Source: a bacterium
GTDB taxonomy: Bacteria > UBA8248
Assembly (NCBI GenBank): GCA_965204535.1
Contig: OZ241996.1
Location: 672,001 to 736,000 of the forward strand
Direction of reading: 5' to 3'
DNA length: 64,000 nt
The notes below the pieces were generated by a model. The model saw only the letters and a program-made list of their open reading frames with translations, searched no databases and was not told the origin of the DNA. Positions 18,429 to 64,000 of this stretch are shown piece by piece (the stretch's first letter is position 1; each line of letters opens with the position of its first letter). The translations under genes were made by a program, and so were the position numbers.

Positions 18429-18650
18429 ATGAATCAACTGACGAACAATGGGGTGAAATACAACCTCGAAACCCGCGATCATGACCTGTACGGGTTCGGC
18501 GTGGACGTCTATATGCTCGATCAGGAGGGCGTCCAGCCCAAAGAACCCATCGCGTTCATTCCCGGAAAAGACGAGAACGCCGCGACCATTCTGACGCAGC
18601 AATGGCTCAAAATCGCTTTTCCGGCGGAGTTGCCGAAAGGCAAGAAATAA
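18429..18650 (+). CDS. Small hypothetical protein
   Basis: 73 aa, AAGGA RBS, host-like codon usage. Confidence 0.6.
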   Translation: MNQLTNNGVKYNLETRDHDLYGFGVDVYMLDQEGVQPKEPIAFIPGKDENAATILTQQWLKIAFPAELPKGKK

Positions 18651-18718
18651 TAGCGGCGCCGCGCGGCAGGGAATCCGCTCGGGCAGCCTTTTCCCTGCTG
18701 TCCAACCGGGGGGACGCC

Positions 18719-20709: not shown

Positions 20710-20829
20710 CGGATTCTCTCCTCAAGATAGTGGATGCAGAATCCCCAGCTTATCGAATCGGGGATGAAAGGGCAAAAAGGCGGACGAAGAACACCCCGCC
20801 GCAGGGGACCGCTGAAAGCGCCCTGATGA

Positions 20830-21670: not shown

Positions 21671-21687
21671 CGACCGAAACGGCTTTT

Positions 21688-21900
21688 CTGGAGTCCGATA
21701 ATTGCTATTATCAGAAAATATAACATCTCTCACGGCCATGTCAAGCGCAATTCCGGGGTCCCCGAAGGGGTTTCGGAGGCCGTTTTGCGTCTTTTTTCGC
21801 TTATATTTCGCTTATTTGCGGCCCGAATGCGCCCCGAATCGGGTTTTTCGGCGGAAAACGGGGTTTCTGGGGGCCGTTAATAGCAATTAGCGGTCACCAG
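21688..21900. promoter_or_regulatory. Candidate invertible promoter switch 1 bounded by inverted dif-like recombination sites
   Basis: Left site GAGTCCGATAA-TTGCTA-TTATCAGAAAA (21691-21718); right site GGGGCCGTTAA-TAGCAA-TTAGCGGTCAC (21870-21897); spacers are reverse complements. Confidence 0.75.
21717..21744 (-). promoter_or_regulatory. Sigma70-type promoter inside switch 1, facing away from the lipoprotein gene
   Basis: Minus strand reads TTGACA-N16-TATATT with TGn extended -10. Confidence 0.7.
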
Positions 21901-22125
21901 GCCGGGAAAGGTGGACGCATACCGCAGGAATCCGCCTCTCGCGGAAAGACTCACCACCGGCCCGGAGCATGAAAGGGTTCAAGTCCGCCGCGTTTCAGGC
22001 GGCTCGAGATACGAATCAGTTTGTGAAGGCCCGAAATGAAAGCTGACGAAAGGAGGTTAATCGGAGAAAGCCGGAAATTCACTGAAGATCCCTTTTTCTA
22101 CTGTGTATTCAGGAGGACTCACTAA

Positions 22126-24831: not shown

Positions 24832-25134
24832 CAGCGAAGAGCAATGACGCCTTTCGCCTCGGGGCTTCACGGCCCCGGGGCCCAAGGCGATATGAGGAGA
24901 GCGAAAAGGGGGTTGCCCGTTGGTTGCTTCTCTCGTGAGAGCAAATTGTACCGCTCCCTGCTGTGAGTTTGAGTCCTCGAGCCGGGAACGGGAACAACGG
25001 GCGGCCCCTGTTTTCGCTTCATGCAGAAAGGCCGGCGCCCCGCTCGGCCGGGCCCCGGACCTCAGGGATTGTGTCGCGGCAACTCCCGCCTTCCGCCGGC
25101 CCTTCGCGGGGTGTCGGCCTTTTTTTCTTGAAAG

Positions 25135-26960
25135 GACAGCCCCTCCTCATCAGGGGATAAAAACAACCCCCCCTACCCCCCCTTGTCAGGGGGGTAAAAA
25201 CAAAAACCCCCCTGAAGCAGTGGGTGTACGATGGTTTTGTAGGTCGGACATATATGTCCGACATATATGCGACCCTGGTTTTTTCCCATTCCAACAATGG
25301 GCCGCATATATGCGGCCCCTACAACAACCGTCCCCTCCCTAATCGCGTGAGACCCTCTTTCATCGGAGCTTTTTCATACCCCCCTGTCAAGGGGGGGTAG
25401 GGGGGGTTATTCCCTCCACCAGGGAGAATCCTAAATTCACTCCCCCTTTCAGACTTGTTTGCTATTCAGCAGAGAGGATTCACTCCCCCCTTGAGGGGTT
25501 GTCCCCTCCTGCCGAAGTGAAAGAATCAACTCCCCCCTTGAGGGTCTGGCTTCCCGAGGGGAAAGCCAGACGAGGAAGCCGAACCGACAGGTGAAGGCTG
25601 ACTCGGTGGGGGGAGTTTTTGTCTGTGGCATGTCCCCCCACCACATCGGCCTTCGCATAAACCGCTCGGCCTCTGTCTGGCTTCCCGAGGGGAAAGCCCG
25701 ACCCCCTCAAGGGGGGAGTGAATATAAAATTCTTCTCGGTGGAATAAGACCCCCCCGACAAGGGGTTGTTGAAAAACCCTGCAATGACGGCAACGAGATT
25801 CCGGCCTGCCGAAGGGAGTGTAGGGGCCGCATATATGCGGCCCGGCGTTGGAAGGCAAAAAGGCCGGGTCGCATGTATGCGACCCCTACACACAAACAAA
25901 TTTTCCCTCGGCGAGGGGCTTTTTCAACAGACCCCGACAAGGGGGGTTACTGCCTTGCCGAAGGGAGTGTAGGTCGGACATATATATCCGACCTACACTC
26001 CGCCTCGTTCTTTCCGAGCAATCGGGCGGACACGTCGGTCCCGGACAACCACGGGGGGTTGTCCCTACGCCCCCGCGGACCCGTAGGGACAGGCCCCCGT
26101 GCCTGTCCGTGGCCCTCGCGCCTTTCCTGTATCGGGGTGAATACGACCGACGGGCGGCCACGGGGGGCCGCCCCTACAACTGCGGCGCGTAATCGCTGTA
26201 GGGACAGGTCGCGACCTGTCCCTACGGGGTGTCGCTTCCCCGGTCGGTTCGATTGCCCTCTCACTTGTTGAAAGGCAACCCCCCCTACCCCCCCTTGACA
26301 GGGGGGTAAGAAAGACCTCTCCCCCGACAAAAAAGGATCAACTCCCCCCTTGAGGGGGGAGTGAACATCAAAGGCGCGCGCTCAACCAAAATCGCTCCAC
26401 GGGGCTGTTGAAGAACCCCTATCCGCCTCATCCTGAGTAGCGGCCCCTCGACTTCGCTCGGGACAGGCTCCGCCGTTGCCCGACACCCCTCATCCTGAGT
26501 AGGCGCGTAAGCGCCGTATCAAAGGTCAAATGCGATTGATGAATGAGCGTTTGCTCTCGCCCAGCGCGAGGCGTTCGACTCCCCTCGCCCTTCGATACAA
26601 ACGCTCCTTTCTCAGTCGCGTCTGACCTTCGGCGGCTACTCAGGGTGAGGAATGAGGCGTTGGCGGTTTGCGGGGGTTACAGACGGGGCCTTTTCATACC
26701 CCCCTGTCAAGGGGGGGTAGGGGGGGTTGGTTTTCCCGTAGGGGCGGCCCCCCGTGGCCGCCCGCATCGAAGATATCCATTCCCGTGGTTGTCCTTCGTC
26801 AGGACAGGCACGGGGGCCTCGGACAGGCACGGGGGCCTCGGACAGGCACGGGGGCCTGTCCCTACTACGGATGCGATTCGGTTTTGTTCGTCATTCCGTC
26901 TTTCGCCGGAATGACGGGTGTTGTGATCTCTCCGGAAGGGTGTCGTAGGGGAGGCTTTCA
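25135..26960. repeat. ~1.8-kb non-coding mosaic of REP-like palindromes and MITEs
   Basis: At least five palindrome families; MITE 25762-25934 flanked by CGACAA direct repeats. Confidence 0.88.
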
Positions 26961-27397
26961 GGCCGGGAGCGCATTTGCCCGCATTTGGCGTTACCGGGCA
27001 TGCGTCCGCGCGGGGCAGGATGGGGCGCGCGAATCGGGAGGAGTTCCGTATGGATATGGGCCGGATGTATCTGGAAAGAGGAAAGCGAACGGGCCCGGCG
27101 TTTTCCGCGCGAGGGGCATTCCTGAAAAATGCGAGAAATATCGATAAATTAACGGGGTTTTCCCGTAAATTTCCGACTATGCAAATGGTTGTAATCAAAG
27201 GGGTTGTCATATGAATCTGAGCGTCCCGCACTCAGATATGGCGCAAAAAAAAAGTTTTCCGGCGCCCCCGCATTTGCCCGCAACTGCCCGCGTTTCCCCG
27301 CGCGGCGAACCCGTCCGCCCGGGCCGCCCGGCCCCGAATCGGGGCGGTTCGGCACCCCGCGGGAGCGGGCGTCCGGTTCATACGGGCGAGGCGAAGA

Positions 27398-30583: not shown

Positions 30584-32743
30584 ATGAAGAGCGAAACCGC
30601 CGCTTTGGAGTTGAACGTCGTCGCCGGGATTGTCCGGCATGAAGGGCGCATTCTCATTTGTCAGCGCCCTGAGGGTGGACACATGCCGGGTTTTTGGGAA
30701 TTTCCCGGCGGTAAAATAAAGGATGGCGAGAACCCCCGGGAAGCCTTGCAAAGGGAGATATGCGAGGAACTAGGGGTCGAAGTGCGCGTTGGCCCTCTTC
30801 ATTGGGAAACCCGTCACAGCTATCCCGACAGGGACGTCCATCTTCGCTTTTATGATTGCGAATGGAAAAGCGGAGTGGCTCAGAATTTGGGGGTGGCGGA
30901 GCACGAGTGGGTCCATCCTTCTTCGCTCGGGGATTTTGATTTCCTGCCTGCGGATGCGCGGTTGATAGAATCTCTCATGAATGGCGAGGAAATAGGGGAT
31001 TCGGGTGAAGAGGCAAAATCCGTCTCAAAGGCTGGTTTAAGCGCCGCTTATGATACGTGCATAAGAATCGTAGTCGGCCACTACGAAAATTTTCCCGTCG
31101 CCTCGAAGTTGTTGCCGGCGAAGATAAGGCCGCACGTCGCCGCGGTATACGCATTCGCGAGGGGCGCCGATGATATCGCGGATACGACAAGACCCGCACA
31201 AGAGCGGCTCGACCGTCTCGATGAATGGGAAGAAAAACTCGTGTCGGCCCAGAAGGGAGTCGCGGATTCGGACGTGTTCATAGCGCTTTCCCATACGCTT
31301 CAACAATTTGATTTGCCTTTACAGCCATTTCTGGATTTGCTCTCGGCATTCAAACAAGACGTCACAGTCCTCCGGTATCCGAACTATGAAGCCTTGCTCG
31401 ATTATTGCCGCCGCTCGGCGGATCCCGTCGGACGAATCGTTCTCATGCTGCACGGGATACGCGATGAAGAGGCATTTCGCGCCTCGGACGCCATATGCAC
31501 GGCCTTGCAGATTGCGAATCACTTACAAGACGTGAAAGAAGACGCCGAGCGCGGCATCGTCTACATGCCGCAGGATGAGATGAAACGATTCGCTGTCTCC
31601 GAGGATGATTTGCTTGCAGATGCGGCGACGCCTCAATTGCGCGCGTTCCTGGTTTTCCAGATAAAGAGAACAAAAAGACTCTTCAAGCAGGGTTTGCCCC
31701 TTTTGTACCGAACCCGCGGCGCATTGGGCCGTGAACTTCGCGCGATTTGGCGCGGCGGCGTTGCGGCGCTTGACGCAATTTCCCGTGCGGAATGGAACGT
31801 CTGCGCGGGTTCCCCGCTTTTGAATGGCCGGGATAAGGCCCAATCGTTGCTCGCTGCCTTTCGCCCGGTCTATCGACTCGAATCCAGTGTGGATCGGCAT
31901 GCCGAAGAAGAGTTGAACCGCGCATACTGCCGCTGGTTCATTCGTGCGAGCCGGTCGAATTTTTATCTGTCTTTTTTCAGCCTTCCTGCGGAGAAAAGGC
32001 GCGCCATCACGGCGGTTTATGCGTATTGCCGCATGGCCGACGACATCGCCGATGAGCCAGGCGAGCTATCTGGTAAAAAAATCTCGTTGCGCGAGTGGAA
32101 AGAGGCATTGGAGCAGTTGGGCGAGGAGAGTCCAGCCCACCCGATAATCGGGGAACTCGCATGGGCGTCGCGAAAATACGACTTGCCGCCGGAGCATTTC
32201 CAGGCGATTTGTGACGGTGTCGCAATGGATTTGGAAGAGAGCCGATTTGAAGATTTCACGGACCTTGAAAATTATTGTGACAAGGTGGCGTCCGCCGTAG
32301 GGCTGGCGTGTCTGGGCATCTTTGAGGCGAAATCAGTTTTTGCGAAAGACTACGCCGTTTGTTTGGGCAGAGCGCTACAGATGACGAACATTTTGAGAGA
32401 CGTATGGGAAGATGCGGAACAGGGACGCATTTATATTCCGCGAAGCGAAATGGAGAAGTATGGAGTAACGGTATCCGATTTGAGAGACAAAAACGATACT
32501 TCCGAGGTTTTAAGCCTTCTTCGGTTCCTGGCGCATCGGGCGCGTGAATACTATGAGGGGGCGAACGAAGCTTTGAGTTGCGAGAAGACAGGAAACCTTC
32601 TTCCCGCCAGAATCATGGGCCGAATTTATCGGAGACTTCTGAGCGAGATGGAGGAGAATCATTTTCGACATATGGATTATCGCCCCTCTTTGAAGTCCAG
32701 GGAAAAACTCCTGGAAGCGCTTCGCTGTTTTCTGGAAGCATAA
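30584..32743 (+). CDS. Fusion of MutT-like Nudix hydrolase, HpnC and HpnD (squalene synthesis)
   Basis: Nudix box EFPGGK...REICEELG; HpnC HYENFPVAS...YCRRSADPVGR; HpnD SNFY.SF...YAYCR.ADDIAD...LQMTNILRDV.ED. Confidence 0.88.
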   Translation: MKSETAALELNVVAGIVRHEGRILICQRPEGGHMPGFWEFPGGKIKDGENPREALQREICEELGVEVRVGPLHWETRHSYPDRDVHLRFYDCEWKSGVAQNLGVAEHEWVHPSSLGDFDFLPADARLIESLMNGEEIGDSGEEAKSVSKAGLSAAYDTCIRIVVGHYENFPVASKLLPAKIRPHVAAVYAFARGADDIADTTRPAQERLDRLDEWEEKLVSAQKGVADSDVFIALSHTLQQFDLPLQPFLDLLSAFKQDVTVLRYPNYEALLDYCRRSADPVGRIVLMLHGIRDEEAFRASDAICTALQIANHLQDVKEDAERGIVYMPQDEMKRFAVSEDDLLADAATPQLRAFLVFQIKRTKRLFKQGLPLLYRTRGALGRELRAIWRGGVAALDAISRAEWNVCAGSPLLNGRDKAQSLLAAFRPVYRLESSVDRHAEEELNRAYCRWFIRASRSNFYLSFFSLPAEKRRAITAVYAYCRMADDIADEPGELSGKKISLREWKEALEQLGEESPAHPIIGELAWASRKYDLPPEHFQAICDGVAMDLEESRFEDFTDLENYCDKVASAVGLACLGIFEAKSVFAKDYAVCLGRALQMTNILRDVWEDAEQGRIYIPRSEMEKYGVTVSDLRDKNDTSEVLSLLRFLAHRAREYYEGANEALSCEKTGNLLPARIMGRIYRRLLSEMEENHFRHMDYRPSLKSREKLLEALRCFLEA

Positions 32744-34099
32744 ATGCCTGAACCTGTCGGATTCGAGCGACCGGTTGTCATCGTCGGCGGCGGCGCCGCA
32801 GGGCTGTCCGCTGCCTTACGCCTTGCCGAGTCGGGCATCAAAGTAATCGTGCTCGAGGCGGGGAAGTTGCTCGGCGGCCGGGCGCGCAGTTTCATTCACT
32901 CATCCACGGGTTTGGAGCTGGACTGGGGCCCGCATTTGTTCATGGCGGCCAATCCGGCGTTGCGCTCATTGTTGGAAAGAGTTGGCGCCACTGATGATGT
33001 TTTGTTCTCACCCTCCCTGGAAGTGAGCTACCGGATTCGGGAAGCGGATTCGGCTAGACGCACGCAATTGTCATTTCCGGAAGGTGGAGGAGTTTTGGCG
33101 CAACTCCGGGGCTTGCTCAAATGGCGTGGCCCTCGTCTTGGGGAGAAAGTGAATCTTCTGAAAGGTCTTTCGAAGATAATTTCCGAATCGAATGATGAAA
33201 ACCCGAATGAATCCATGTATGAAATGCTGGGGCGGCTGGGCCAGAAGGATGAAACAGTGCGCTGGTTTTGGGAGCCGTTTGCGCGCGCGGTGTTGAACTT
33301 GCCTTTGGAGCAGGGGAGTGCGGAATTGTTCAAGGCGGTGATTCGGGAAGCCTTCGCCGATGGACCAAAGGGAGCTGCGCTGGGGGTGCCGATGAAGGCT
33401 TTGGGAACGCTTTGGGCGAATAGAGCAGCTCAACGCATCCGGCACCACGGCGGAGAGTTGAGGCTTCAGCAGCCCGCCGTCGGGTTCGACGTCAAGAATT
33501 CAATAATGAGGGGCGTGATTCTGAAAGAGAGCGAGACCTTGCATGCGGCTGCCGTTATTTCCGCCGTGCCGCCTGACGCCCTTGGCAGACTGCTGGGCGG
33601 GGAACTCAGTGAGCGGGCGCCCTTCTCGAATCTGGGAAAACTACGCCCGGGGCCTATTGCCAGCGCCTATTGCTGGCTTGAGGAACCGGATGAGGGGCCT
33701 CCTTTCGAAGCGATTGTAGATGAGGAATGGGACTGGCTGTTTCGCCCGGAATCCAGTGGAAAAGGCGCGAGGAATCTGGTGTGTCTGTTGGCAGGAGCGG
33801 AAGATTCCATCGCATCTGCTGAGCGATCGACTATCGAGTCTTCTGCGAGAGATTGTCTGAATCGAATGATTCCCGGTAACCATATTCGAGATATTTTGGT
33901 GGTGCGGGAGCGCGCCGCTACCTGGGCGAACGGGGTAGCGGAGCAAAGATACCGGGTAGATACGAAAACGCCGATAGAGGGTTTTTTTCTGGCTGGAGAC
34001 TGGACTCGCACGGGATTGCCGGCCACCGTAGAGGGTGCGGTGAGAAGCGGGGAAAATGCAGCACAGGCGGTTTTAGAGTATACCGAGGCCAGCGTGTAG
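32744..34099 (+). CDS. hpnE: Hydroxysqualene dehydroxylase (FAD-dependent)
   Basis: GGGAAGLSAA, GGRARSF, D.G.H, LAGDWT.TGLPAT.EGAVRSG; directly follows the hpnC/D fusion. Confidence 0.9.
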   Translation: MPEPVGFERPVVIVGGGAAGLSAALRLAESGIKVIVLEAGKLLGGRARSFIHSSTGLELDWGPHLFMAANPALRSLLERVGATDDVLFSPSLEVSYRIREADSARRTQLSFPEGGGVLAQLRGLLKWRGPRLGEKVNLLKGLSKIISESNDENPNESMYEMLGRLGQKDETVRWFWEPFARAVLNLPLEQGSAELFKAVIREAFADGPKGAALGVPMKALGTLWANRAAQRIRHHGGELRLQQPAVGFDVKNSIMRGVILKESETLHAAAVISAVPPDALGRLLGGELSERAPFSNLGKLRPGPIASAYCWLEEPDEGPPFEAIVDEEWDWLFRPESSGKGARNLVCLLAGAEDSIASAERSTIESSARDCLNRMIPGNHIRDILVVRERAATWANGVAEQRYRVDTKTPIEGFFLAGDWTRTGLPATVEGAVRSGENAAQAVLEYTEASV

Positions 34100-41643: not shown

Positions 41644-41810
41644 GCTTGTTTGAAGGGTAGATTTTTTGATCTTCAAGGCCCTGGATGATAGAGTCGACGG
41701 CGAATCCTGAACATATCACCGGATGATCATCGCCCGGGGATTCAACTGACGCCTGACGATATCCTTCCAGGATATTTTTGCAGCACAATGATGAAAGGGA
41801 GGGAGTGCTC

Positions 41811-42746
41811 GTGGCCACGCATGAACTGGATACCACCGTCGATACCTGCCATTGGGGCTTTTATGACTCAGCTCTTGCTCCCGTCATGACGATCGCTTCC
41901 GGCGATACGCTCGTCGTGAAAACCGAGTCTGGACGCAAAGATTTTCTGCAAAAACATCCCGAGAGAGTCTCGGATAATCTGAGGCGAATCCTGGAGACGA
42001 TGGAACAGGGACCCGGTGCGCACATCATGACGGGTCCGGTGGCGGTCGAAGGCGCCGAACCCGGCGATGTTCTGGAGATCAAGATTCGTGATATCAGACC
42101 CCGGTATGATTGGGGTTACAACGGTTTCAGGCCCCTGGTGGGTGGTCTGCCGGAGGATTTCCCTTATACGAGGGTTGTGATTGTCGAGGTGGACGAGGAG
42201 AGTGGAACGGGCGACTGGGGCGCGGGTGTCAAGGTGCCGCTCGGGCCTTTTTTCGGAAATTTCGGTGTGGCACCCGCTCCGGTGCTTGGGCGCGTGCCGT
42301 CGTCTCCCCCGGGAGAGTGGGGCGGCAATACGGATTGTAAGGAATTCACGGCCGGCTCGACGATTTATTTACCTGTTTTCACCGAAGGCGCCTTGTTCTC
42401 CGTGGGCGACGGGCATGGCTGCCAAGGGGATGGGGAGGCGAACATCAACGGAATCGAGATGGGCCTCATCGGCACTTTCGGGATGACCGTCCGCAAGGAC
42501 ATGGACATCAAGACCCCGCGCGCGGAGACGGAATCGCACTACATATTGATGGGTTTTGACCCGATTCTCGACAATGCGGCGAAGATGGCCTTACGCGAGA
42601 CGATTCAGTTTCTGGGTGAGCTTCGGGGCATGAGCCGGGATGATGCGTACAGGTTGTGCAGCCTGGCGGTCGACCTGCGCGTGACCCAAATCGTGAACGG
42701 CACCAAGGGCGTTCACGCCATGGTGCCCAAATCTTTATTCGAATAA
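41811..42746 (+). CDS. Acetamidase/formamidase family protein, paralog 1
   Basis: HWG.YD, H.MTGPV.VEGAEPGD.L, GGN.D, GDGH..QGDGE; GTG start. Confidence 0.9.
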   Translation: MATHELDTTVDTCHWGFYDSALAPVMTIASGDTLVVKTESGRKDFLQKHPERVSDNLRRILETMEQGPGAHIMTGPVAVEGAEPGDVLEIKIRDIRPRYDWGYNGFRPLVGGLPEDFPYTRVVIVEVDEESGTGDWGAGVKVPLGPFFGNFGVAPAPVLGRVPSSPPGEWGGNTDCKEFTAGSTIYLPVFTEGALFSVGDGHGCQGDGEANINGIEMGLIGTFGMTVRKDMDIKTPRAETESHYILMGFDPILDNAAKMALRETIQFLGELRGMSRDDAYRLCSLAVDLRVTQIVNGTKGVHAMVPKSLFE

Positions 42747-42762
42747 GTTTCATATTTATAAG

Positions 42763-43719
42763 GTGTCATCCTTGGCCGAACATGTGATTGCGCAAATCCC
42801 CGACAACATCCAGTGGGGTTATTATGACGCCGACCTTTCTCCGGTTCTCACCGTCGCTTCAGGCGATGTGCTCGAAATTCACACCGAGCCGGGGATCAGG
42901 ACTCTTGAATCTCCGATATGGGAAAGAGCTTCTGAAAATCTGCGAGAAATCGCCGAGCGCGGTAAGAGGGACCTGGGCGGTCATATCCTCACCGGACCCA
43001 TCGCTGTCGAAGGAGCTGTGGCGGGGGATGTCCTGGAAGTGAGATTTCTGGAAATCTGGCCGCGCTATGATTGGGGTTTTAACGTCATTCGGCCCCTGGC
43101 GGGCGGCTTGCCCGAGGATTTTCCGTATTCGAGAACGGTAATCGTGGAAATAGACAAAGAAGCGAATACGGGGGACTGGGGCGCAGGCGTGAAAGTGCCG
43201 CTCAGGCCTTATTTCGGCAACTTCGGCGTAGCACCACCGAGCGATTTCGGCCGTGTTCCATCCACTCCGCCGGGAATCTGGGGCGGAAACATGGACAACA
43301 AGGAATTTATTGCAGGTTCTCGCGTCTATCTTCCCGTATTTCACGATGGTGCTTTGTTCGCCATAGGTGACGGACACGGATGTCAGGGGGACGGGGAAAG
43401 CTGTCTCTCCGCCCTGGAATGCGGCATGTCCGCGAAAATTGAACTCATCGTCCGAAAGGATTTGAGTCTGAAAATGCCCCGCGCCGAGACACCGACTCAT
43501 CATATCCTCATGGGGTTCGATCCGATTCTCGATAATGCAGCCAAAATGGCGCTCAGGGAGACGATTCGGTTTTTAGGGGAATTGCGCGGCATGAGCAAAG
43601 ATGATGCGTATACACTGTGCAGTCTGGCGGTGGATTTGCGTATCACGCAGATTGTGAACGGGGTCAAAGGCGTTCACGCGATGTTGCCGAAGAGTATTCT
43701 TGATGAAGGAGTGTGTTGA
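42763..43719 (+). CDS. Acetamidase/formamidase family protein, paralog 2
   Basis: Same motifs as paralog 1. Confidence 0.9.
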   Translation: MSSLAEHVIAQIPDNIQWGYYDADLSPVLTVASGDVLEIHTEPGIRTLESPIWERASENLREIAERGKRDLGGHILTGPIAVEGAVAGDVLEVRFLEIWPRYDWGFNVIRPLAGGLPEDFPYSRTVIVEIDKEANTGDWGAGVKVPLRPYFGNFGVAPPSDFGRVPSTPPGIWGGNMDNKEFIAGSRVYLPVFHDGALFAIGDGHGCQGDGESCLSALECGMSAKIELIVRKDLSLKMPRAETPTHHILMGFDPILDNAAKMALRETIRFLGELRGMSKDDAYTLCSLAVDLRITQIVNGVKGVHAMLPKSILDEGVC

Positions 43720-44654
43720 TGGCGACTCATGAATTGATTGCAAACCCGGATACCGTCCATTGGGGCTATTATGACGCCTCCCTGGAGCCTGTGATGCGCA
43801 TTCGCTCGGGCGACACGCTGGAGGTTCATACGGAATCGGGACGCGAGGAATATCTGGCGGAACTCGGGGACCGGGCGTCCCAAAATTTGAGAAACATCAT
43901 CGCGCAGGTTTCCCAGGAGCTTGGCCCCCATATCATGACGGGTCCTGTGGCTGTAGAAAGCGCGCAGCCCGGAGACGTGCTGGAAGTCCGCATCCACGAG
44001 GTCAAGACGCGCTATGACTGGGGATATAATACCATCCGGCCGATGATGGGGGGATTGCCGGAGGATTTTCCGTATACGCGCACCGTCATCGTGGACCTCG
44101 ATCTGGAAGCGCAAACGGGGGACTGGGGCGCGGGCGTCAGGGTGCCATTGAGGCCTTATTTCGGCAACTTCGGCGTGGCGCCCCCGCCTGCCGTAGGCCG
44201 TGTGGGGAGCTATCCTCCAAGTGCGTGGGGCGGGAATTTGGACAACAAAGAACTCATCTCGGGTTCTGTCGTCTATTTCCCGATTTTTAACGAGGGTGCT
44301 CTGTTTTCCGTAGGCGATGGGCACGGCTGCCAGGGAGACGGGGAAGCCTGTTTGACGGCTATCGAAACGGGTCTCTCGGGGACGATGGAAATCATCGTCA
44401 GAAAGGATATGCAACTCGATAATCCCCGGGCGGAAACCGACACGCATTATATCCTGATGGGCTTTGACCCTATTCTCGATAACGCGGCCAAAATGGCGCT
44501 GCGTGAGACGATTAAATTTCTGGGAGAGTTGCGCGGCATGAGCAGAGATGATGCATATACACTTTGCAGTCTTGCCGTGGACTTGCGGGTCACGCAAATT
44601 GTAAACGGCGTGAAGGGAGTTCACGCCATGCTGCCGAAATCATTGTTTACATGA
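43719..44654 (+). CDS. Acetamidase/formamidase family protein, paralog 3
   Basis: Same motifs; TGATG overlap with paralog 2. Confidence 0.9.
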   Translation: MATHELIANPDTVHWGYYDASLEPVMRIRSGDTLEVHTESGREEYLAELGDRASQNLRNIIAQVSQELGPHIMTGPVAVESAQPGDVLEVRIHEVKTRYDWGYNTIRPMMGGLPEDFPYTRTVIVDLDLEAQTGDWGAGVRVPLRPYFGNFGVAPPPAVGRVGSYPPSAWGGNLDNKELISGSVVYFPIFNEGALFSVGDGHGCQGDGEACLTAIETGLSGTMEIIVRKDMQLDNPRAETDTHYILMGFDPILDNAAKMALRETIKFLGELRGMSRDDAYTLCSLAVDLRVTQIVNGVKGVHAMLPKSLFT

Positions 44655-55470: not shown

Positions 55471-55733
55471 GCTTTGGAGACCCGCACGCCGAAGCCGGTG
55501 GATGAAAAGCACGAAACGCCGCCGGAGCAACACGCCTGCCCCACCTGAGTCGGCGGGTTGTTCTCCGCCGTGGCGCGGGTTTTGGGGTGGATGAAGAGGA
55601 AGCTGCTGGGATAGCGGGCCGATGAATCACATGAGCTGAATCAGGCGAAACCTTTGATTTTGCGGCCTCTATCTGCAGGCAGGTGTGAGTCGATGAGGTG
55701 AGTGTATCATGAAACTCCCGCGCCGGGGGGGCT

Positions 55734-56096
55734 CTATCGGTTGATGAGCAGGTTCGCGCCCGCGGCGATCACCAGAACGCCCACGATTCTCTTGAGCGTG
55801 AGGGCCGAGAAGGTTTGCAGCAGATGGGCACCCACTACGCCGCCGATGATGGCCCCGATACTTAGATAAACCGCGTAATTCCAGACGATTAGCCCGCTCC
55901 GCACGTTCTCGAACGAGGCGACCAGCGAGTTGAACAGGTAGGCGAGAATCGAGACCGCCACCGCTTGTTGGGGCGTGAGCGAGGGGATGAGGAACAGCGT
56001 CGGCACCATGATGATGCCCCAGCCCACGCCGGTGGCTGCATTCAAGGTGCCCACGACCGCACCCAATACCAGAAGACCCGCCCCTATCCAGTCCAA
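55734..56096 (-). CDS. Half-size TauE/SafE (TSUP) sulfite-exporter-like membrane protein
   Basis: G.G.GII.VP.L...AVA.S; four TM helices; TTG start with GGAG RBS. Confidence 0.75.
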   Translation of the reverse strand: MDWIGAGLLVLGAVVGTLNAATGVGWGIIMVPTLFLIPSLTPQQAVAVSILAYLFNSLVASFENVRSGLIVWNYAVYLSIGAIIGGVVGAHLLQTFSALTLKRIVGVLVIAAGANLLINR

Positions 56097-56584
56097 AACA
56101 CTCCCCTTTTCAGATAGTTATGGTGATTATCGTATGTTTCGCTATAAATTCATCCACCCCCGCAACTCCCCGCATTTGCCGACATCGCGGAAGGCGCGGG
56201 CCATGGCAGAATGCCCCTGCGTCCGGATTTCGCGGCGTCAAAGCCTAAGAATTTAATTTTCGGCAATTTATCGAATAACCCCGTGAATTTATCTATATTT
56301 ATCGAATTTATCAGAAATTCCGAGTGGGATCTTCGCGACTGCGAGCTTCGCTCGGGGAGCCCTGTTCGAAGTCCTGAAATCATCGCCGCTTCGCCTCATC
56401 GTCCTTCCTCCTGCTCCCATCCCGATGCTCTCCCGAAAGCGCCTCCGCCCGCAAGCCGTCGAATCGAACCGGGCAGCGAGCCTTGCGCGCCAGGGTAGCG
56501 AATCCCGGCTGGTGGCCCCTAACCGTAATTGCGGGAAAATGCGCGAGGTGTGTGAAAGGGATTGCCGAGCAAACAAGATTTCTG

Positions 56585-56760
56585 ATTTCACTCTTTCCTC
56601 ATCCCGAGTAGGCGTGTTTGCGCGCCGTATCGAGGGTTTGACCCGACCGAGGAGGTAGGGTCAAACGGGGCGCATCGGAAGCGTCCTTCGATACGCCGCC
56701 ATCGGCGGCTACTCAGGGTGAGGCCGATACGGGTGGCATGCAAGGCGAGCGTTTGCCGAT
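56585..56760. repeat. CCTCATCC(C/T)GAGTAG...CCTTCGATACG...CTACTCAGGGTGAGG palindromic repeat
   Basis: Homologous to 26485-26655. Confidence 0.7.
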
Positions 56761-57287
56761 TGATGAAGGAGTGTTTGCGGGTTTCGCTTTTGCTCGTCTT
56801 AGAGACAAGAGCAGTTTCGGGCATTTTCGATTATCCTGTAAGGTGCTGTAATAAGATTAGTTAACAGGTTGCCATGAATCTTCCCTGGCAGGCCCGTAAT
56901 CAAAACGAAAGCGGGTTCATTACAACTCCAGAGCATCCCGGCGGGCGCTCGTCCGTGAGCGCTCGGGCCAATCATTCAGCCAAGCCGTAATAGCAAGTTC
57001 CCGAACAGCGGCAGTTCGAGATACCGTTCACCGCCAATCGCCAGTCATTCGCAGCGACGACTCGCGAAACAGGGCGCCGCGGTGTGAGCGACATTGTTCC
57101 TTTTTTTCCGTAGCGCCCCGCTGCACGTTCTCCGGCGACCTTCGTTTTCTGGAAAACGCCCGTGATTTCAGGCTGAACCGATGAGCGGTCCGCGCACGAA
57201 CGCAGGCGCGGACTCTTCCCGGGTGTACCTTCCGCGCTAGAAACAACGATTGAACGGGCGCTCGTCCTTTCCTTATGTTCGCGCGCC

Positions 57288-58007
57288 ATGACCGCGTTTA
57301 AAGACGATACCGGCGCCCCGCTGGACGAGCGGCTGCGCCGGAGCATTGCGCTCTGGCGCGCGCGCCGAGGGATGAGTGCGAGGCGCTTCGGGGTGGGCGC
57401 GCTGGGGGTTCCCGGCTTCGTGGGCCTGCAGGCCCGGGGGCGGCCCCTGCGGGTCGACACGGCGGACCGGGTGCTCGCGTTCATGGGGTATCCGCCGCTG
57501 GGACCGCTCCTGCGGGCCGAGGTGGAGGCGTTTCTCGTGGTGAGCGGGACCAAGGTCTCGATCCTGGGCGAGGAGACCGTGGGGAATCCCTCCTTCGTGG
57601 GGAGGCTGCGCCGGGGCGCCTCGCCGTATCTCAAGACCTTCGACCGGGTGCGCGCCTGGATGGCGGCCAACGCGACGGGAGAGGAGATCCGCGCCATACG
57701 CGAGAGGCTCGCGGACTTGCCCGACCCGTTCGACGGGACGTGGGACGCCGCCGGGGAACCCGGGGCCGCGGGAGACGCCGATGAGCGCGCGAAGGAGAAC
57801 CACCTGAACACGCGGGAGGCGGCCGCCTGGCTCGGCCTCTCGCCCAAGACGCTGGAGCGCTACCGCGTGAGCGGAGAGGGGCCGGATTTTCTTCGCATCG
57901 GATACCGGGTGCGCTACCTGCTCGAAGACCTCGAGAAGTGGGCCTCCGCCCGGAGGTGGACTTCCACGTCCGAGGAGAGAGCCGCCCGGAGAAAGAAGAG
58001 GCGGTAG
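57288..58007 (+). CDS. Multi-HTH DNA-binding protein (two Cro-like repeats plus C-terminal excisionase/AlpA-like HTH)
   Basis: C-terminal LNTREAAAWLGLSPKTLERYR..GEGP.F...G.RVRY..EDL..W; two internal repeats of G...FV..L..G.......DRV.A(F/W)M. Confidence 0.75.
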   Translation: MTAFKDDTGAPLDERLRRSIALWRARRGMSARRFGVGALGVPGFVGLQARGRPLRVDTADRVLAFMGYPPLGPLLRAEVEAFLVVSGTKVSILGEETVGNPSFVGRLRRGASPYLKTFDRVRAWMAANATGEEIRAIRERLADLPDPFDGTWDAAGEPGAAGDADERAKENHLNTREAAAWLGLSPKTLERYRVSGEGPDFLRIGYRVRYLLEDLEKWASARRWTSTSEERAARRKKRR

Positions 58008-58036
58008 AGAGATATTCGGGAGAAGACGGGCGGACT

Positions 58037-58273
58037 TCACAGGCCGTGGCGCAGCCTCGCCATCGCGGCCACGGCCGCCGAGTGCCCCCCCTCGCAGAGA
58101 TCCCCCAGGTACGCCGCTATCCCGGCGTCGGTCTCGGGGTTTCCCGAGCGCTCGAATCCCCTGAGCGCCGTCTCGTACGCCCGCCGCGTGTTCTCAGACA
58201 TCGAGGCCTTCGCCAGGTCGGCGGCCGCACGGGCCGGTCGGGCCGGCCTCCTCGTCAAAGCGATGTCCTGCAT
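58037..58273 (-). pseudogene. Truncated tyrosine recombinase (N-terminal core-binding domain only)
   Basis: ASMSENTRRAY..ALRGF...D..IAAYL..L...G.S resembles integrase/Cre N-terminal SAM-like domains; stops after 78 aa. Confidence 0.6.
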
Positions 58274-58449
58274 CGGGTCGGATGGTCTTGCCCCCGTCGT
58301 CATGCCGAGAAGCCAACCTTCCGGGTCGGCGGCCGTGTCCATTGCCGGGGCCGCTCGAGCGCCTCCTCGATTACCAAGTATGGACGACGGCGGGGAATTT
58401 CCACAAAAAAAGCCGTTTCGCAGGGGAATACCGGCGAAACGGCGGGTTT

Positions 58450-58661
58450 CTGGAGTCCGATAATTGTCGTTATCAGAAAATTTAACACCTCTCACGGCCA
58501 TGTCAAGCGCAATTCCGGGGTCCTCGGAGGGGTTTCGGGCGTCGTTTTGCGCCTTTTTTCGCTTATATTTCGCTCACTTGCGGCCCGAATGCCCTCCGAA
58601 ACGGGTTTTTGGGGGAAAACGGGGCTTCTGGTGTCCCATAACGACAATTAGCGGACTCCAG
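58450..58661. promoter_or_regulatory. Candidate invertible promoter switch 2 bounded by inverted dif-like recombination sites
   Basis: 24-bp IR with 1 mismatch (58450-58473 / 58638-58661); sites GAGTCCGATAA-TTGTCG-TTATCAGAAAA and GTGTCCCATAA-CGACAA-TTAGCGGACTC. Confidence 0.78.
58479..58506 (-). promoter_or_regulatory. Sigma70-type promoter inside switch 2, facing away from the lipoprotein gene
   Basis: Minus strand reads TTGACA-N16-TAAATT with TGn extended -10. Confidence 0.7.
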
Positions 58662-58920
58662 CCCGGGTTCGAGGTGGCGCATACCGCAGGGATTCTTGTC
58701 TCGCGGAACCACCGGCCCGGACTACGAGTCCGCAAGTCTACCGTATTTCGGGCTGCCCGGGATACGGCGAACCGGCAGTAGCGGTTTCCTCCAGGGGATC
58801 GCCCGGCACGTCCGCCGGGCGGTCCCTGGCGGGAGAAGTATGGCGAATATCAGGCGGATTCGTATTTTTTATTCCGCTCAGACAATTCCACCAGAGGTAC
58901 CAGAGGGAAGGACCCGGAAA

Positions 58921-60453
58921 ATGAAAATAAGACATCGCATGGAGAGGCTTGCAACCGGAGGCGGCATGGTCCGTCATCCGGAAGAGACCGGCAGAAGCCC
59001 TGGGCGGCCGGCAGGCCCGGGTTTATCGAAGGGCTCCTCCCGTCTTTTACAGGCTCAGGACAGGCCTGACGCGCCCAAGCGCTCACGCGACCGCTTCTCC
59101 TTCCTCATCCCCTGCTTCGCGCTGCTGCTTGTCACGCTCGCCGGTTGCGGCGGTGGCTCGTCTTCCCTCTCGGGCGCGCCGCCCATGGAACCCCCACCGC
59201 CGGTGCACGCGGTGGGCCTGCCCGACATGCACGACCTTTCCGGCTGGCTGACGGCCAACCCCGCCGGCACGGTCACCGTTCCCGCTGGCGAGCACCGCGA
59301 CGTGGGCGGGGTGCGCTTCTTCTGCCCTGCGGGCGGGGCGGACTGCGCGGTGACGGTGACCGCCGAGAACGGGACCGTCGCGGCGACCTCGACGGACGGC
59401 ATGGCCACCGCCATGTTGGCGCCGCCGCCGGTGCACGCGGTGGGCCTGCCCGACATGCACGACCTTTCCGGCTGGCTGACGGCCAACCCCGCCGGCACGG
59501 TCACCGTTCCCGCTGGCGAGCACCGCGACGTGGGCGGGGTGCGCTTCTCCTGCCCTGCGGGCGGGGCGGACTGCGCGGTGACGGTGACCGCCGAGGACGG
59601 GACCGTCACGGCGACCTCGACGGACGGCATGGCCTCCACGATGCCGGTGCCGCCGCATGACCGCTGGGAACATATTTATGACATAGCGGATACACTGCTC
59701 CAATCCAGCGACCACCTTCGTTATACCTTCAACTGGACCGGGCGGGGACAAAGCACAAGCGATCATGTGGTCAATAACTATTCGTGCACTGGATCGCGTT
59801 GCGTCAGCGATGAACGGGTGATTACCGTCGAGGACTTTCGGCATCCGGACAACAGGGTCCAGGTGGCCGTGCCGGCGGAGGACTTGGGATCGCAAGGCGG
59901 GTTTGACACTCTTACGGCCTCGGTCGACGTGGACCTTTCATTTCTCTTCGCGGAGACCACCCTCACGGAGTACCCTTCCTACGACACGTATGGCGTCTGG
60001 GGCCAATACGGTGCCTTACATTTGCAAGTTGTTGACGGACCAATGGCCGGCCAAGTCCAGGGCGTGCCGTTCACGGGCGACCTCAACTATGCAGTCGCGT
60101 TCGTCCTGGGCAATGCCACGGGTACCAACCCACAAGGCACGGGGAGTGCAACCTGGCGTGGCGTTGCCGAGGCCGTCTCGACCAGCACGTTCCAGCGGGG
60201 GCAAGGAACCGCGACACTCACCATCGCAGACCTGTCTCGACCGCGGGTTGGAGTTGACGTCGATATTCCCGGGTTTGCTATCGGCTCGCCCCGTTGGTCC
60301 GACATACCGCTGACGGACGGCCGGTTTGCGACCGGAACCGCCGGAACCGACCGTCTTGAAGGCGATTTCCACGGGCCCGCTCACTACGAAGCCTACGGCG
60401 TATTCGATACGGGCCCTTACGTGGGCGGGTTCGGAGCGAAACGGACCCAGTGA
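58921..60453 (+). CDS. Surface lipoprotein with a duplicated 76-aa domain and C-terminal TbpB-like beta-barrel region
   Basis: Lipobox LAGC followed by GGGSSS; GSATWRG...G.F.GP.H.EA.GVF...GGFGAKRTQ; start uncertain (58921 or 58966). Confidence 0.8.
   Translation: MKIRHRMERLATGGGMVRHPEETGRSPGRPAGPGLSKGSSRLLQAQDRPDAPKRSRDRFSFLIPCFALLLVTLAGCGGGSSSLSGAPPMEPPPPVHAVGLPDMHDLSGWLTANPAGTVTVPAGEHRDVGGVRFFCPAGGADCAVTVTAENGTVAATSTDGMATAMLAPPPVHAVGLPDMHDLSGWLTANPAGTVTVPAGEHRDVGGVRFSCPAGGADCAVTVTAEDGTVTATSTDGMASTMPVPPHDRWEHIYDIADTLLQSSDHLRYTFNWTGRGQSTSDHVVNNYSCTGSRCVSDERVITVEDFRHPDNRVQVAVPAEDLGSQGGFDTLTASVDVDLSFLFAETTLTEYPSYDTYGVWGQYGALHLQVVDGPMAGQVQGVPFTGDLNYAVAFVLGNATGTNPQGTGSATWRGVAEAVSTSTFQRGQGTATLTIADLSRPRVGVDVDIPGFAIGSPRWSDIPLTDGRFATGTAGTDRLEGDFHGPAHYEAYGVFDTGPYVGGFGAKRTQ
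59197..59652 (+). repeat. Intragenic tandem duplication, 228-nt period
   Basis: Near-identical copies start at 59197 and 59425. Confidence 0.92.
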
Positions 60454-60856
60454 GACGAGCCGATATTTCCCGCCAGTGCGTACCGTAAGGCGCTTCTGAC
60501 TTTCACGCGGTCAACTGGTCCGTACCGATCCTTTCGGTCGCGTATCGCCATGTGCCGCAGACCCCGGCGGCTTGCGTCGCCAGAGCCTCGTGCCGATGGG
60601 TGCATGGACATTCCGTCCATGAGTCGTCCGCCTGCGTCGTCCGCCTGCGCATTGCCGTTTGGCCTTGTGCTTCCTATACTGCCGCCCGGACGCCGCGCGG
60701 CGGTTCGGGGACTGTCTCCGCAAGTGCGCGGCGGGCGCTGCCGCTCAAGCGCCGCTCGGGCTAACTGCCGATTGCAAAACGGTTTTTATCGCCCGACGGT
60801 TTGAGCGGTCAGGAAGCGGGTTGACGACGCCCCGCGGCGTTTTGTTCTCAGACCCC

Positions 60857-61100
60857 ATGCATCGATTCATTTCAGCTGATCGATGCCTGCCCGCAATCCA
60901 CGACATGAAGCATCCCGCGAGAAACGATATGAGTTCCGTGACGATGTGACGACCGGACTTTGCCTGCGGATTTTCCAGGGCGGCGGGCACGCCTTAACCC
61001 GCAGCCGTATGGTTCGCCAGCGCAGACGCTGCGCCACCATCGACAACGCCGATACGCCGAGCGTGCCGGCGGCGAGGAGTGGGACTCACAGGCTTTTCCG
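60857..61100 (+). pseudogene. Degenerate integrase N-terminal arm-binding domain remnant
   Basis: REKRYEFRDDVTTGLCLRIFQGGG...RMVR.RRR..TI...SVPAAR resembles P4-type integrase arm domains; frameshifted, no catalytic domain. Confidence 0.5.
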
Positions 61101-61344
61101 CGTGTTTTCAGGGGGCGGGGCGTTTCCAGCGGTTGTAAAATCTCCTGATCCCGTTGATATCATTGAGAAGCATTCATTTCCCCCGGGTCTCGTTCGGAAT
61201 CCACCATTCGCAGCAAGTAATCAAAACGCTAACGAGGGGAATCAAATCCCTGCGCATCCCGGGGCGTGCCTGCCGGTAAGCGTTCGGGCGGGCCGTGATG
61301 GTAGTGCCTTGAAGCAGTAGTTCGGGCCGGAATGGGGGATGATT

Positions 61345-62217
61345 TTACCGGTTGAGGACTTGCTTCCAGTTTCTGCGCAACGGTCGTAGCCAGATGTCCT
61401 TTTTCGGTTGGTCTCGTTTCGTGTATCTGTCGTAGCGTCCACGCCCCTGGGTCATACCGACGTGAATCCACCCCGATGCCCTGTAGACGGCGCCGGTGTA
61501 GCGCGGCGTCTCGACGAAGGTCTCGACGAGGACGGGTGTCGTGCCATAGCGCTCGGTCCAGTCCTCGGGCAGGCGCCTGCGGATGATGGCGAGGAGGTGT
61601 GAGCCGAGGTTGAGGATCCTGATCCATGGCAGGATGAGGAACCTCGGGTTGTCGACCACGAGGGGGAGGTTCTTCTCGCGCAGCTGCGGCGTCCAGCCGA
61701 TGAAGCTGTCGCGCGGGGCGAGCTTCCACGCGGCGGTGGAGAAGCCGAGCATGGCGAGGGGCCTGCCGCCCCGGTCGTGGACGGCGTAGCGCATCTGCGC
61801 GCCGACGAGGGTCTTGTAGCCGAGGTAGTGGTAGCGGGCGACGAACTCGTTCCAGAGCCTGCCCTCGCGGGTTCCGCGCACGGCGACGCGCATATCGAGG
61901 GGGCGGACTTCGTCGAGGGTCTCAGGCGCCGGGATGAGGGGAGGTTCGGTGTCGGGTCCGAAGACGATCGGCCCGGGCCGGTTCTGGCGCCACTTCGGTG
62001 GGGGCAGCGTGATCAGGCCGTCCTTGTGCATGGCCAGCATAGTCACCCGGGCCATCATGTCCTTGAGTCCGCCGTCGGGCTTGTACCAGCCGATTCGGCG
62101 GCAGAACTCCTTCGATAGCGCATGGCGGTTGAGCGCAGGTGGACCTGCGATCAGTTCGCGCAGCAGCGCCATCTCTTCCGTCGTGAAGTCGCGTCCGTGG
62201 TAGCGGCACTCGGTCAC
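61345..62217 (-). CDS. DUF4338 (DruA-like) domain protein
   Basis: YHYLGY...G..MRY, RD.FIGW, N.RFLILPW....NL.S, L.ETFV, G..Y.A.GW...G.T.GRG. Confidence 0.88.
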   Translation of the reverse strand: MTECRYHGRDFTTEEMALLRELIAGPPALNRHALSKEFCRRIGWYKPDGGLKDMMARVTMLAMHKDGLITLPPPKWRQNRPGPIVFGPDTEPPLIPAPETLDEVRPLDMRVAVRGTREGRLWNEFVARYHYLGYKTLVGAQMRYAVHDRGGRPLAMLGFSTAAWKLAPRDSFIGWTPQLREKNLPLVVDNPRFLILPWIRILNLGSHLLAIIRRRLPEDWTERYGTTPVLVETFVETPRYTGAVYRASGWIHVGMTQGRGRYDRYTKRDQPKKDIWLRPLRRNWKQVLNR

Positions 62218-62221
62218 GGCG

Positions 62222-64000
62222 TCATCCCGGCGCCGTGAGGGCGCGCCTGCGCTCCGTGCTCATCGACCAGGGCAGCCACGCGGAGAGGTCCCCGGGCGCC
62301 CGGCCGCCGTTCTCCGCGCAGGCCGTGAGCCATGCCTCCAGCCAGCGGAGCGGGTCGACCCCGTTCGACGCGAGGGTTCCGAGGACCGAGTACATCATCG
62401 CCGTAAACCTGGCGCCGGCCTCGCTGTCGGAGCCGAACGAGAGCCGCCTGCCGATCACAGGGCCCCGAAGCGCACGTTCGCTGGCGTTGTTATCCATCGG
62501 CACCGAGGGGCGTTCGATGAAGACGCTCAGCCCCTCGCGGTGGTTCAGCAGCGAGCGAAGCGCCTTGCCCTCGCGCGCCTGCGCGGGCAGAGCGGCCATC
62601 TCCCGTCGGGCCTGCGCGAACAGGTCCTTGAGCGCCTTCTTCAATTCGTCGTGCGCCGCGTCGAACGCCGCATCCTGGCGTTCGACGCCCGGGTCGTAAC
62701 TGGCCAGGCGCGCCTCGTTCAGGCGGTAAAGCAAGGCAATCCGCTCGATCCATCTCTCGCACCACGGCGTCAGCCGCTCATCGCCGGCGGCGCAGTGGAT
62801 ATAATCGCGCCGGACGTGACTCCAGCACCATGCGAGAGTCACCAGACCCCCGGGAATGCGCGCCAGCTTCTTGTAGGCGCTGTAGCGGTCGCAGACGATG
62901 ACCGTATGGGAGCCGGCCGCGCCGAACAGCTTCATCGCGACCTCAGCACTCCGCGAGGGGTCGACGTGGAAGTAGACGGAGTCTGCGCTGACCGAGGTCC
63001 ACAGCCAGGCGCGGCTCGAGCGTCCTTGTTCGCGAAGCGACTGAACGCGCCACGTCGTCTCGTCCCCGTGACGCACCGCCGCTTCGTTCTGGCGGTCGAG
63101 GATCGCCGCAGCCAGCGGCTCGAAGAGCGGCGTGAAGCGGTGCGTGCTGTCGCCCAGTGTGCCTGCAGAGACCGGAAGCCCCTGGTCGGAGAGCCACGCG
63201 GCGACCCGGCGCAGCGGGCGGAAGCAGGCGTAGCGCTCGAACAGGAAGCGCGCCCACACGCTCGTCCCGTAAGGCGTGCCCGCGAACAGGCGCGGCGCGG
63301 CGGGCGCCGACACTTCCACCGGAGACGACGCGCACGCGCATCTCCTGCGCCATCTCGGACGGCGGATGACGCGCTTGTGGGCCGAGACTTCGATCTCGAA
63401 GATGGAGGAGACCTCGGCGCCATTGGCCACGTAGGGCTTCCCGCAACCGGCGCAGACGCGCGCACCGGCCGGCGGGTTGCGAACTTCGGTCCTCTCATCG
63501 AGCGCGGGCCGCGGGGTGCGGCCATGACCGGCGGCGCCGGGTTGCCGGCCGCGCCTGCGCTCCGAGCGCGGCCTCTCCTGCCGTTCGCTCTTGCGCCCGA
63601 ACAGTCTTCTCGCCAGCACCGCTCCGGTGGCGCGAAGCTTCGCGAGATCGGCCTCCAGCCGCGCCCGGATGGTCTCTGACTTGCGGAGCGCCCTGCGAAG
63701 ACGCCCGTTCTCCCTCGACAGCGACCTGAGCGCCGTCTTCTGGCGCCGCGACCTCCCCAGGGCCTTGCGCAGTTCCTCATCTGCACGAGACGGCGACTTC
63801 GAGCGCGCCGCCTCGAGAGCGCGCAGCAACCGCGCCTTCAGCCGTTCGGTCGCAATGCCTACGGCCCCCAGGGAGACTTCAAGACGGTAGACCTCCGCAG
63901 ACAGCGACTCGACCACCTCCGCCTGGTCGCGCAATCGCCTCAACTTCCTGTAGAGCCCGATGGCCTCCTCGTCCAGGCTCCGAATGGTCTCCTTGTCGGT
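62222..64000 (-). CDS. tnpC: IS66 family transposase (5'-truncated by window edge)
   Basis: LFGRKSE, GH.R, CxxC Zn finger, DET, CDRYSAY, CW.H.RR, DNN.SERALR; long coiled-coil N-terminus open to the window edge. Confidence 0.93.
   Translation of the reverse strand, partial: TDKETIRSLDEEAIGLYRKLRRLRDQAEVVESLSAEVYRLEVSLGAVGIATERLKARLLRALEAARSKSPSRADEELRKALGRSRRQKTALRSLSRENGRLRRALRKSETIRARLEADLAKLRATGAVLARRLFGRKSERQERPRSERRRGRQPGAAGHGRTPRPALDERTEVRNPPAGARVCAGCGKPYVANGAEVSSIFEIEVSAHKRVIRRPRWRRRCACASSPVEVSAPAAPRLFAGTPYGTSVWARFLFERYACFRPLRRVAAWLSDQGLPVSAGTLGDSTHRFTPLFEPLAAAILDRQNEAAVRHGDETTWRVQSLREQGRSSRAWLWTSVSADSVYFHVDPSRSAEVAMKLFGAAGSHTVIVCDRYSAYKKLARIPGGLVTLAWCWSHVRRDYIHCAAGDERLTPWCERWIERIALLYRLNEARLASYDPGVERQDAAFDAAHDELKKALKDLFAQARREMAALPAQAREGKALRSLLNHREGLSVFIERPSVPMDNNASERALRGPVIGRRLSFGSDSEAGARFTAMMYSVLGTLASNGVDPLRWLEAWLTACAENGGRAPGDLSAWLPWSMSTERRRALTAPG

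Follow-up and report, generated by a model that had tools for sequence, protein, structure and literature searches.

Switch 2, an invertible segment upstream of a lipoprotein gene, is very probably one of 17 two-orientation promoter segments of its genome, likely flipped in trans by a Cre-like tyrosine recombinase and toggling a predicted surface lipoprotein. Positions without a contig prefix refer to the window, i.e., the whole analysed stretch of 64,000 nucleotides, which corresponds to C1:672001-736000 of the source genome (G000; 4.56 Mb in two contigs, C1 and C2). A preliminary description of the window had proposed a dispersed family of switches, each preceding a surface gene, with both window copies OFF (promoter facing away from the gene). 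The OFF state of both is confirmed in the assembly, and the family reading is supported by 17 genomic copies, 16 of which lie upstream of genes for surface or secreted proteins; that reading overlooked the Cre-like recombinase, the spacer code, the OFF-side terminator and the autotransporter-like cargo.

The features of the window are as follows.
58464-58647: invertible segment of switch 2, 184 bp from spacer to spacer; OFF in the assembly
58450-58473 / 58638-58661: inverted repeat of switch 2, 24 bp with one mismatch
58453-58480 (+): left lox-like site; outer arm GAGTCCGATAA, spacer TTGTCG (58464-58469), inner arm TTATCAGAAAA
58631-58658 (-): right lox-like site, inverted; outer arm GAGTCCGCTAA, spacer TTGTCG (58647-58642), inner arm TTATGGGACAC
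58479-58506 (-): predicted sigma-70 promoter; TTGACA (58506-58501), 16 bp, TAAATT (58484-58479), TG before the -10 box
58405-58443 (-): predicted intrinsic terminator; G+C hairpin, then seven U; fold z -4.55
58377-58382 (-): candidate -10 box, weak and picked out by eye, for a fixed promoter belonging to the recombinase gene itself; directly behind the terminator
58037-58342 (-): remnant of a Cre-like recombinase gene with an internal in-frame deletion
57288-58007 (+): HTH_17 (excisionase-like) gene, converging on the recombinase remnant; belongs to a repeated cassette
58659-58920 (+): leader from switch to gene; stable predicted fold, z -3.75
58921-60453 (+): lipoprotein gene, cargo of switch 2; LAG-C, poly-Gly, repeats, C-terminal TbpB/fHbp-like domain
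21702-21886: switch 1; OFF; spacer TTGCTA at both sites; without adjoining recombinase gene or remnant
22126-24831 (+): cargo of switch 1; 901-aa LAGC lipoprotein of the main (MMFKEK-type) family

Much of this anatomy had been noted beforehand. The 24-bp inverted repeat with its single mismatch was borne out; the reported likeness of the 184-bp segment to switch 1 amounts to 159 identical positions of 185 aligned, over a distance of 36,762 bp; and the TTGACA-N16-TAAATT motif said to point away from a LAGC gene is indeed a predicted promoter on the minus strand, the gene lying on the plus strand with its Cys at 59146 and its stop at 60453. At switch 1, the same 24-bp repeat carries four mismatches, and the conserved unit is the short arm-spacer-arm site rather than the long repeat.

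The switch 2 promoter is the sole consensus match in 58000-59100 (shuffled sequence, 0.3 ± 0.5). Its -35 box is invariant in all 17 copies of the genome, and the -10 boxes of some ON copies are further from the consensus. Since the left site's inner arm directly adjoins the -10 box, a bound recombinase would cover the start site too. The hairpin with seven U recurs in 21 of 33 gene-distal flanks and in 0 of 33 gene-proximal ones, the remaining 12 distal flanks having no terminator by the same test; a web terminator scan missed the hairpin of switch 2 because its loop is long. In the OFF orientation, the transcript would end about 70 nt on at this terminator, insulating the recombinase gene, and is likely a dead end rather than a driver of the recombinase. 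The notion that the OFF promoter drives the recombinase gene was set aside, the terminator lying between the two. As for the gene's own putative fixed promoter, a regex test recovered the -10 box in 1 of 33 flanks. In the ON orientation, the transcript would pass through the leader into the surface gene, and the cargo would be expressed.

Copies and orientations of the switch

BLAST, an invariant anchor and a pattern search each returned 17 copies in the source genome, 15 OFF and 2 ON. A lack of association with surface-protein genes and of opposite orientations had been named beforehand as a refutation of the family reading; both tests favour that reading, and the two ON copies (C2:2391281 and C2:567392) have the core reversed between the same two flanks. 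All 16 inverted TAA-N6-TTA pairs with equal spacers lying 150-230 bp apart genome-wide are these switches; each of five shuffled genomes yielded none. Across genomes, a DNA search detected the family in 13 of 41 (including 11 of the 22 of the genus and 1 of another family), and the pattern search in 11 of 51.

The sister genome G002 carries 16 copies, 13 OFF and 3 ON. Four of its loci are syntenic with switch loci of the source genome, three by both flanks and one by the upstream flank only, and the other 12 copies occupy places where the source genome has no switch. In one syntenic pair, the switch at C2:2207144 is OFF and its G002 counterpart (L076) ON; both flanks are 96-97% identical, and only a 206-bp segment is reversed. 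Hence, both orientations occur between the same flanks among paralogues and also at one syntenic locus in two genomes. Altogether, 56 resolved switches comprise 49 OFF and 7 ON copies, the latter spread over four genomes, with the reservation that the genomes compared are kin and their switch counts are not independent events. A first assignment gave 47 OFF, 7 ON and 2 unassigned, and those two are OFF by the anchor search and the G002 count.

The ON switch at C2:567392 lies upstream of two tandem genes for 901-aa lipoproteins (C2:561570-567110; L203:1575-7094), 99.9% identical over 2725 bp. Beyond them lie a lone lox-like site with a different spacer (C2:561247) and part of a barrel gene. REP-like palindromes form dense clusters at 16800-27300 and 400-760, around switch 1 and other recombinase-less switches.

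Lox-like sites and the spacer code

Each repeat consists of an arm, a 6-bp spacer and a second arm. The arms are of the CCGATAA, CTGATAA or CCGCTAA type, with the same motif in all four arm positions, and about 7 bp per arm are conserved around the variable 6-bp core; the spacer reaches 8 bp only with the invariant A and T on either side included. The sites compared were 58 left sites (17 from the source genome, 16 from G002 and 25 from 33 further loci), 56 of them with a readable right site and two cut by contig ends.

Spacers are identical at both ends in 55 of the 56 switches and represent 25 codes, as against 2.9 matches on average and 13 at most when partners are permuted; the mismatched switch is L062 of G002. 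In the source genome, all 16 resolved switches are matched. In the 17th, the right spacer is divided between the two ends of contig C1, and a match can be read by eye given a 4-base overlap; the assembly has its break, or its point of circularisation, precisely at a recombination site. In all seven ON copies, the inner arms travel with the promoter and the outer arms remain with the flanks, so the crossover occurs in the spacer or right beside it. A recombinase tetramer would bind the CCG(A/C)TAA-type arms and exchange strands across the 6-bp spacer. Since such exchange requires identical spacers (as established for Cre and proposed for RecV), the locus-specific spacer could serve as an address, and each switch would recombine mostly with its own partner only; we infer that the switches act independently. 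The accessible part of PMC10250229, which defines the sites of Cre-type Y-SSRs, likewise describes partner choice as set by spacer identity.

Genome-wide, one unpaired lox-like site was found (C2:561247, mentioned above; shuffles, 0-2). The idea that lox-like sites are the att ends of an element was rejected, a single lone site being within the range of the shuffles. A degenerate search for the core motif in metagenome contigs returned no matches.

The code is not perfect. The 17 loci of the source genome use 13 codes, four of them twice; 4 of the 136 locus pairs share a spacer, and 32 are one base apart. The two genomes have codes one base apart at all four syntenic loci, the change having affected both ends together. 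Most spacer changes are transitions. It is conceivable, if somewhat unlikely, that the matching reflects neutral drift with homogenisation within each locus during flipping, that there is no selected code, and that exchange between different switches can occur, with reshuffled cargo and chromosomal rearrangements as the outcome. The prevalence of transitions fits this explanation, as do the shared and nearly shared codes, the leaders joined to different cargo and a contig that starts and ends inside one spacer. Against it stand the 13 codes among 17 loci and the divergence of the spacers, which is about 3.4 times that of the interior (0.355 vs. 0.104 over the 32 switches of both genomes), although the interior, carrying a conserved promoter, is not a clean neutral reference; moreover, active inversion is required here too.

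The fuller proposal, advanced tentatively and at somewhat less than even confidence, is that of a natural heterospecific lox-like library: a pool of Cre-like recombinases serving 17 separately addressed switches and thereby giving a sponge symbiont up to 2^17 surface states, with the addresses driven apart by selection against cross-talk, and a mobile, plug-in module for phase variation that has taken up varied surface genes in several phyla.

The Cre-like recombinase and the fate of switch 2

On the side away from the cargo, a full tyrosine-recombinase gene adjoins 8 of the 17 copies and a remnant adjoins 2, including switch 2; the other 7 have none. The 8 full recombinases are 74-96% identical, retain complete R, K, H-x-x-R, W and Y motifs, and have Cre as their best solved relative (E 7e-13). 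The role of Cre is phage DNA circularisation, as opposed to the promoter inversion at many heterospecific sites considered here. The catalytic set R-K-H-R-W-Y is the same as that of Cre, in intact copies elsewhere in the genome and not at switch 2; at the same time, Cre/loxP differs in its sites, with 13-bp arms and an 8-bp spacer. On plasmids, the recombinase has only distant relatives (about 30%).

The association of site and enzyme extends beyond the genus. The scan covered 70 of 159 recombinase loci, leaving out repeats of counted switches, partial matches, loci with short upstream DNA and duplicates. A spacer-matched inverted pair lies upstream of the recombinase at 11 of 19 loci with at least 60% identity (several of the 11 probably being genus members counted before), at 3 of 21 with 40-59%, and at 0 of 30 below that, compared with 2 of 3500 shuffles. 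The more distant switch-bearing loci belong to records titled Latescibacterota, Binatia and Dehalococcoidia; in the Latescibacterota-titled record, the promoter is ON and the cargo is TonB-receptor-like by its N-terminus. Two relatives of the recombinase (L095 and L097; 59-64%) have a single near-perfect palindrome as their upstream site, with no partner site inside 1 kb, which may represent a resolvase-like ancestral state. The source genome also holds 42 tyrosine-recombinase matches. Many of them form neighbouring pairs separated by 1.2 kb, as numerous RIT elements would.

At switch 2, the recombinase gene has lost about 675 bp in frame at a short shared motif (junction near 58058-58070), and with it all catalytic residues. 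With such a remnant only, switch 2 would need an enzyme supplied in trans. Its right inner arm, TTATGGGACAC, is a rare variant seen once among 128 arms. Without a working recombinase of its own and with this arm, switch 2 may be slow or locked; still, we consider it probable that it flips.

Public contigs contain switch 2 with OFF junctions only. Contigs of two runs, X1 (58545-58729) and X2 (58545-58828), span the right site in the OFF form with no differences at a depth of about 17; both runs come from one study and may include the source sample. Among the contigs of all four metagenome runs, which drop rare variants, no inverted joint was found at switch 2. These OFF junctions, together with the remnant gene, the rare arm and the OFF form of most switches (49 of 56), would agree with an invertible-promoter family that is real but whose orphans, switch 2 among them, are relics frozen OFF after recombinase loss, with variation existing between strains and not within a population. 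We regard this as unlikely: four of the seven ON copies (C2_2391281, L074, L076 and L041) stand at loci with no recombinase or a truncated one, and the orphans retain matched locus-specific spacers and the invariant -35 box, which suggests their continued use in trans.

It is very improbable that housekeeping XerC/XerD, rather than the Cre-like enzyme, flips the switches. The six-base spacer between TAA and TTA does recall the core of dif, and two strong phage-integrase-family genes reside elsewhere in the genome. Yet XerC/XerD-dif combines two different arms with two enzymes (comparison with the accessible part of PMC3599477), whereas one motif occupies all four arms here, as expected of one enzyme; across taxa, the site pair accompanies the Cre-like gene and becomes rarer as that gene diverges, and this enzyme scores 46 and 33 bits against the XerC and XerD families, far under their cut-offs of 335 and 330. 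Finally, a small transposon-like repeat inserted either way round, or inverted copies arising as assembly errors, would suit a genome rich in palindromic repeats and IS and the assembly of both genomes from mixed samples, but this is scarcely credible and largely refuted because, in contrast to what a MITE or other inserted repeat would show, every copy has the same pair of flanks, the crossover lies inside the sites with the outer arms staying with the flanks, a single site exists outside pairs, and ON copies occur in four genomes.

Cargo, carrier element and related systems

The cargo of the 17 switches in the source genome includes 13 intact lipobox genes, 1 frameshifted, 1 gene for a secreted protein that shares their C-terminal motif, 1 for an autotransporter-like protein (Calx-beta, cadherin-like) and 1 non-surface gene; 14 switches thus precede lipobox genes, and a switch is missing immediately upstream of at least 12 other lipobox genes. 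In G002, the cargo comprises 7 lipoproteins and 9 large autotransporter-like proteins, as judged by their termini (one checked by Pfam). The frameshift, in the lipoprotein at C2:376525, lies in the G-rich linker right after the lipobox and represents either a sequencing error or a second, slippage-type switch. The switch at C2:1591686, the sole one without the usual leader, is upstream of a short ORF and a 393-aa non-surface gene, and may be read as a cassette captured by a metabolic gene. Two related switches in other genomes (L084 and L085) precede a twin-arginine-type protein of an enzyme-like family, not an adhesin.

The lipoprotein of switch 2 is predicted to be a Slam-type surface lipoprotein, having a lipobox and a modelled TbpB-like barrel. 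Its start at 58921 was deduced from a conserved ATG and implies a predicted signal peptide of 75 aa, a length of 60-75 aa being atypical. The protein contains two 76-aa Cys-containing repeats (59183-59638), of which homologues have 1 to 5 copies. The model of the C-terminal domain (pLDDT 93.8) matches TbpB, LbpB and fHbp (best E 2e-6, TM about 0.4), and the Atlas suggestion agrees. A lipobox, a Gly/Ser linker, a predicted C-terminal handle-and-barrel fold and the presence of a Slam gene (C2:795287) liken it to the Slam-dependent lipoproteins TbpB, fHbp, LbpB and HpuA; identity of 10-16%, the absence of a Pfam match and the unusually long signal peptide set it apart from them. Sequence searches of Pfam, NCBIfam and the PDB gave no family name for the lipoproteins. 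The C-terminal likeness between the lipoproteins of switches 1 and 2, asserted in the preliminary description, holds at the level of motifs, but the sequence match is weak (best BLASTP E 0.03; 25% in a forced alignment).

Over the leader and first codons (to about 58980), switch 2 shares 91% identity with a cassette of G002 whose cargo is autotransporter-like, and hence its lipoprotein gene looks swapped in. An Rfam search over 55500-62300 gave only two below-threshold M23 matches inside coding repeats, taken as chance. The cassette would have spread within a mobile element, losing the recombinase at 9 of 17 sites and exchanging its cargo between Slam-type lipoproteins and autotransporter-like adhesins. 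The HTH_17 gene upstream of switch 2 and the SSB, YAcAr, DUF4326 and NikA-like genes downstream point to a mobile integrative element as the carrier. No clean empty site of the cassette was identified, synteny with G002 ending at 56320, and no tRNA or tmRNA lies beside switch 2 as an insertion target. A 12-bp direct repeat (56896-56907 and 61217-61228) occurs in two conserved non-coding segments flanking many cassettes in both genomes; it is neither lox-like nor a clean element end. The putative carrier is interrupted at 61276-64000 by a multi-copy IS66-family element (100% identical at many sites), whose repeated part includes a DruA-like gene (61345-62217). Elsewhere, the window contains three tandem acetamidase/formamidase paralogues (41778-44654) and a NUDIX-squalene/phytoene synthase fusion next to an amine-oxidase-family gene (30584-34099).

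For the housekeeping proteins of the window (four of five found), the named members of the 90% clusters are all labelled Nitrospinota/Nitrospinae. Several of the metagenome runs matching the window are sponge metagenomes, those covering most of it bear coded names, and the bacterium is likely a sponge symbiont.

The switching logic is already known from the mpl promoters of M. penetrans and from RecV of C. difficile; novelty, as far as searched, lies in the Cre-like type of enzyme, the scale, the mobility of the cassette and a host labelled Nitrospinota. Mpi of Bacteroides is a serine recombinase. Invertible promoters under global recombinases are reported for Bacteroides in the accessible part of PMC2268961; dispersed promoter inversions, combinatorial surfaces and a host-associated bacterium are common to both systems, the sites and cargo being different. 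M. penetrans, according to the accessible parts of PMC2268961 and PMC8593674, has 38 mpl lipoprotein genes with adjacent invertible promoters, independent switching and a tyrosine recombinase. The likeness to mpl (P35) lies in architecture only, i.e., dispersed lipoprotein genes each with an adjacent invertible promoter, and was drawn from description, not from sites or enzymes; M. penetrans is a wall-less pathogen, in contrast to the diderm, probably symbiotic marine bacterium with Slam-type and autotransporter-like cargo considered here.

A close parallel in design is that of RecV, for which the accessible text of PMC12282940 proposes a "spacer code" at six C. difficile switches, based on an in silico model in one strain. 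As portrayed there, several dispersed switches depend on one tyrosine recombinase, and their ends consist of arm, 6-bp spacer and arm, with spacers the same within and different between switches. Here, by contrast, there are 17 switches instead of six, every one a homologous promoter; 8 near-equivalent recombinase copies are carried in cassettes; and the enzyme, unlike RecV as described in that text, appears to have an N-terminal domain, its best solved match being Cre. Literature searches, with subscription papers and supplements outside their scope, retrieved no description of the family under Cre-like phase variation, DNA inversion in Nitrospin-type bacteria of sponges, or sponge invertible promoters; for heterospecific lox sites, they retrieved engineering work and no natural system. 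The main text of PMC11602134, which predicts invertons in marine metagenomes, is without sponges or Nitrospinota in the part accessible, and its supplements could list these segments.

Overall, the spacer-code idea, an in silico model for RecV, gains strong comparative support from covariation over 56 switches: 55 matched pairs and 25 codes, with both ends changing in step. The code becomes testable with one enzyme and short sites, and a Cre-like recombinase with short arms and naturally sampled spacers represents a resource for genetic logic tools. For the organism itself, the findings suggest that an uncultured, probably symbiotic marine bacterium varies its surface proteins by phase variation on a large scale, possibly as a way to dodge phages or host cells.
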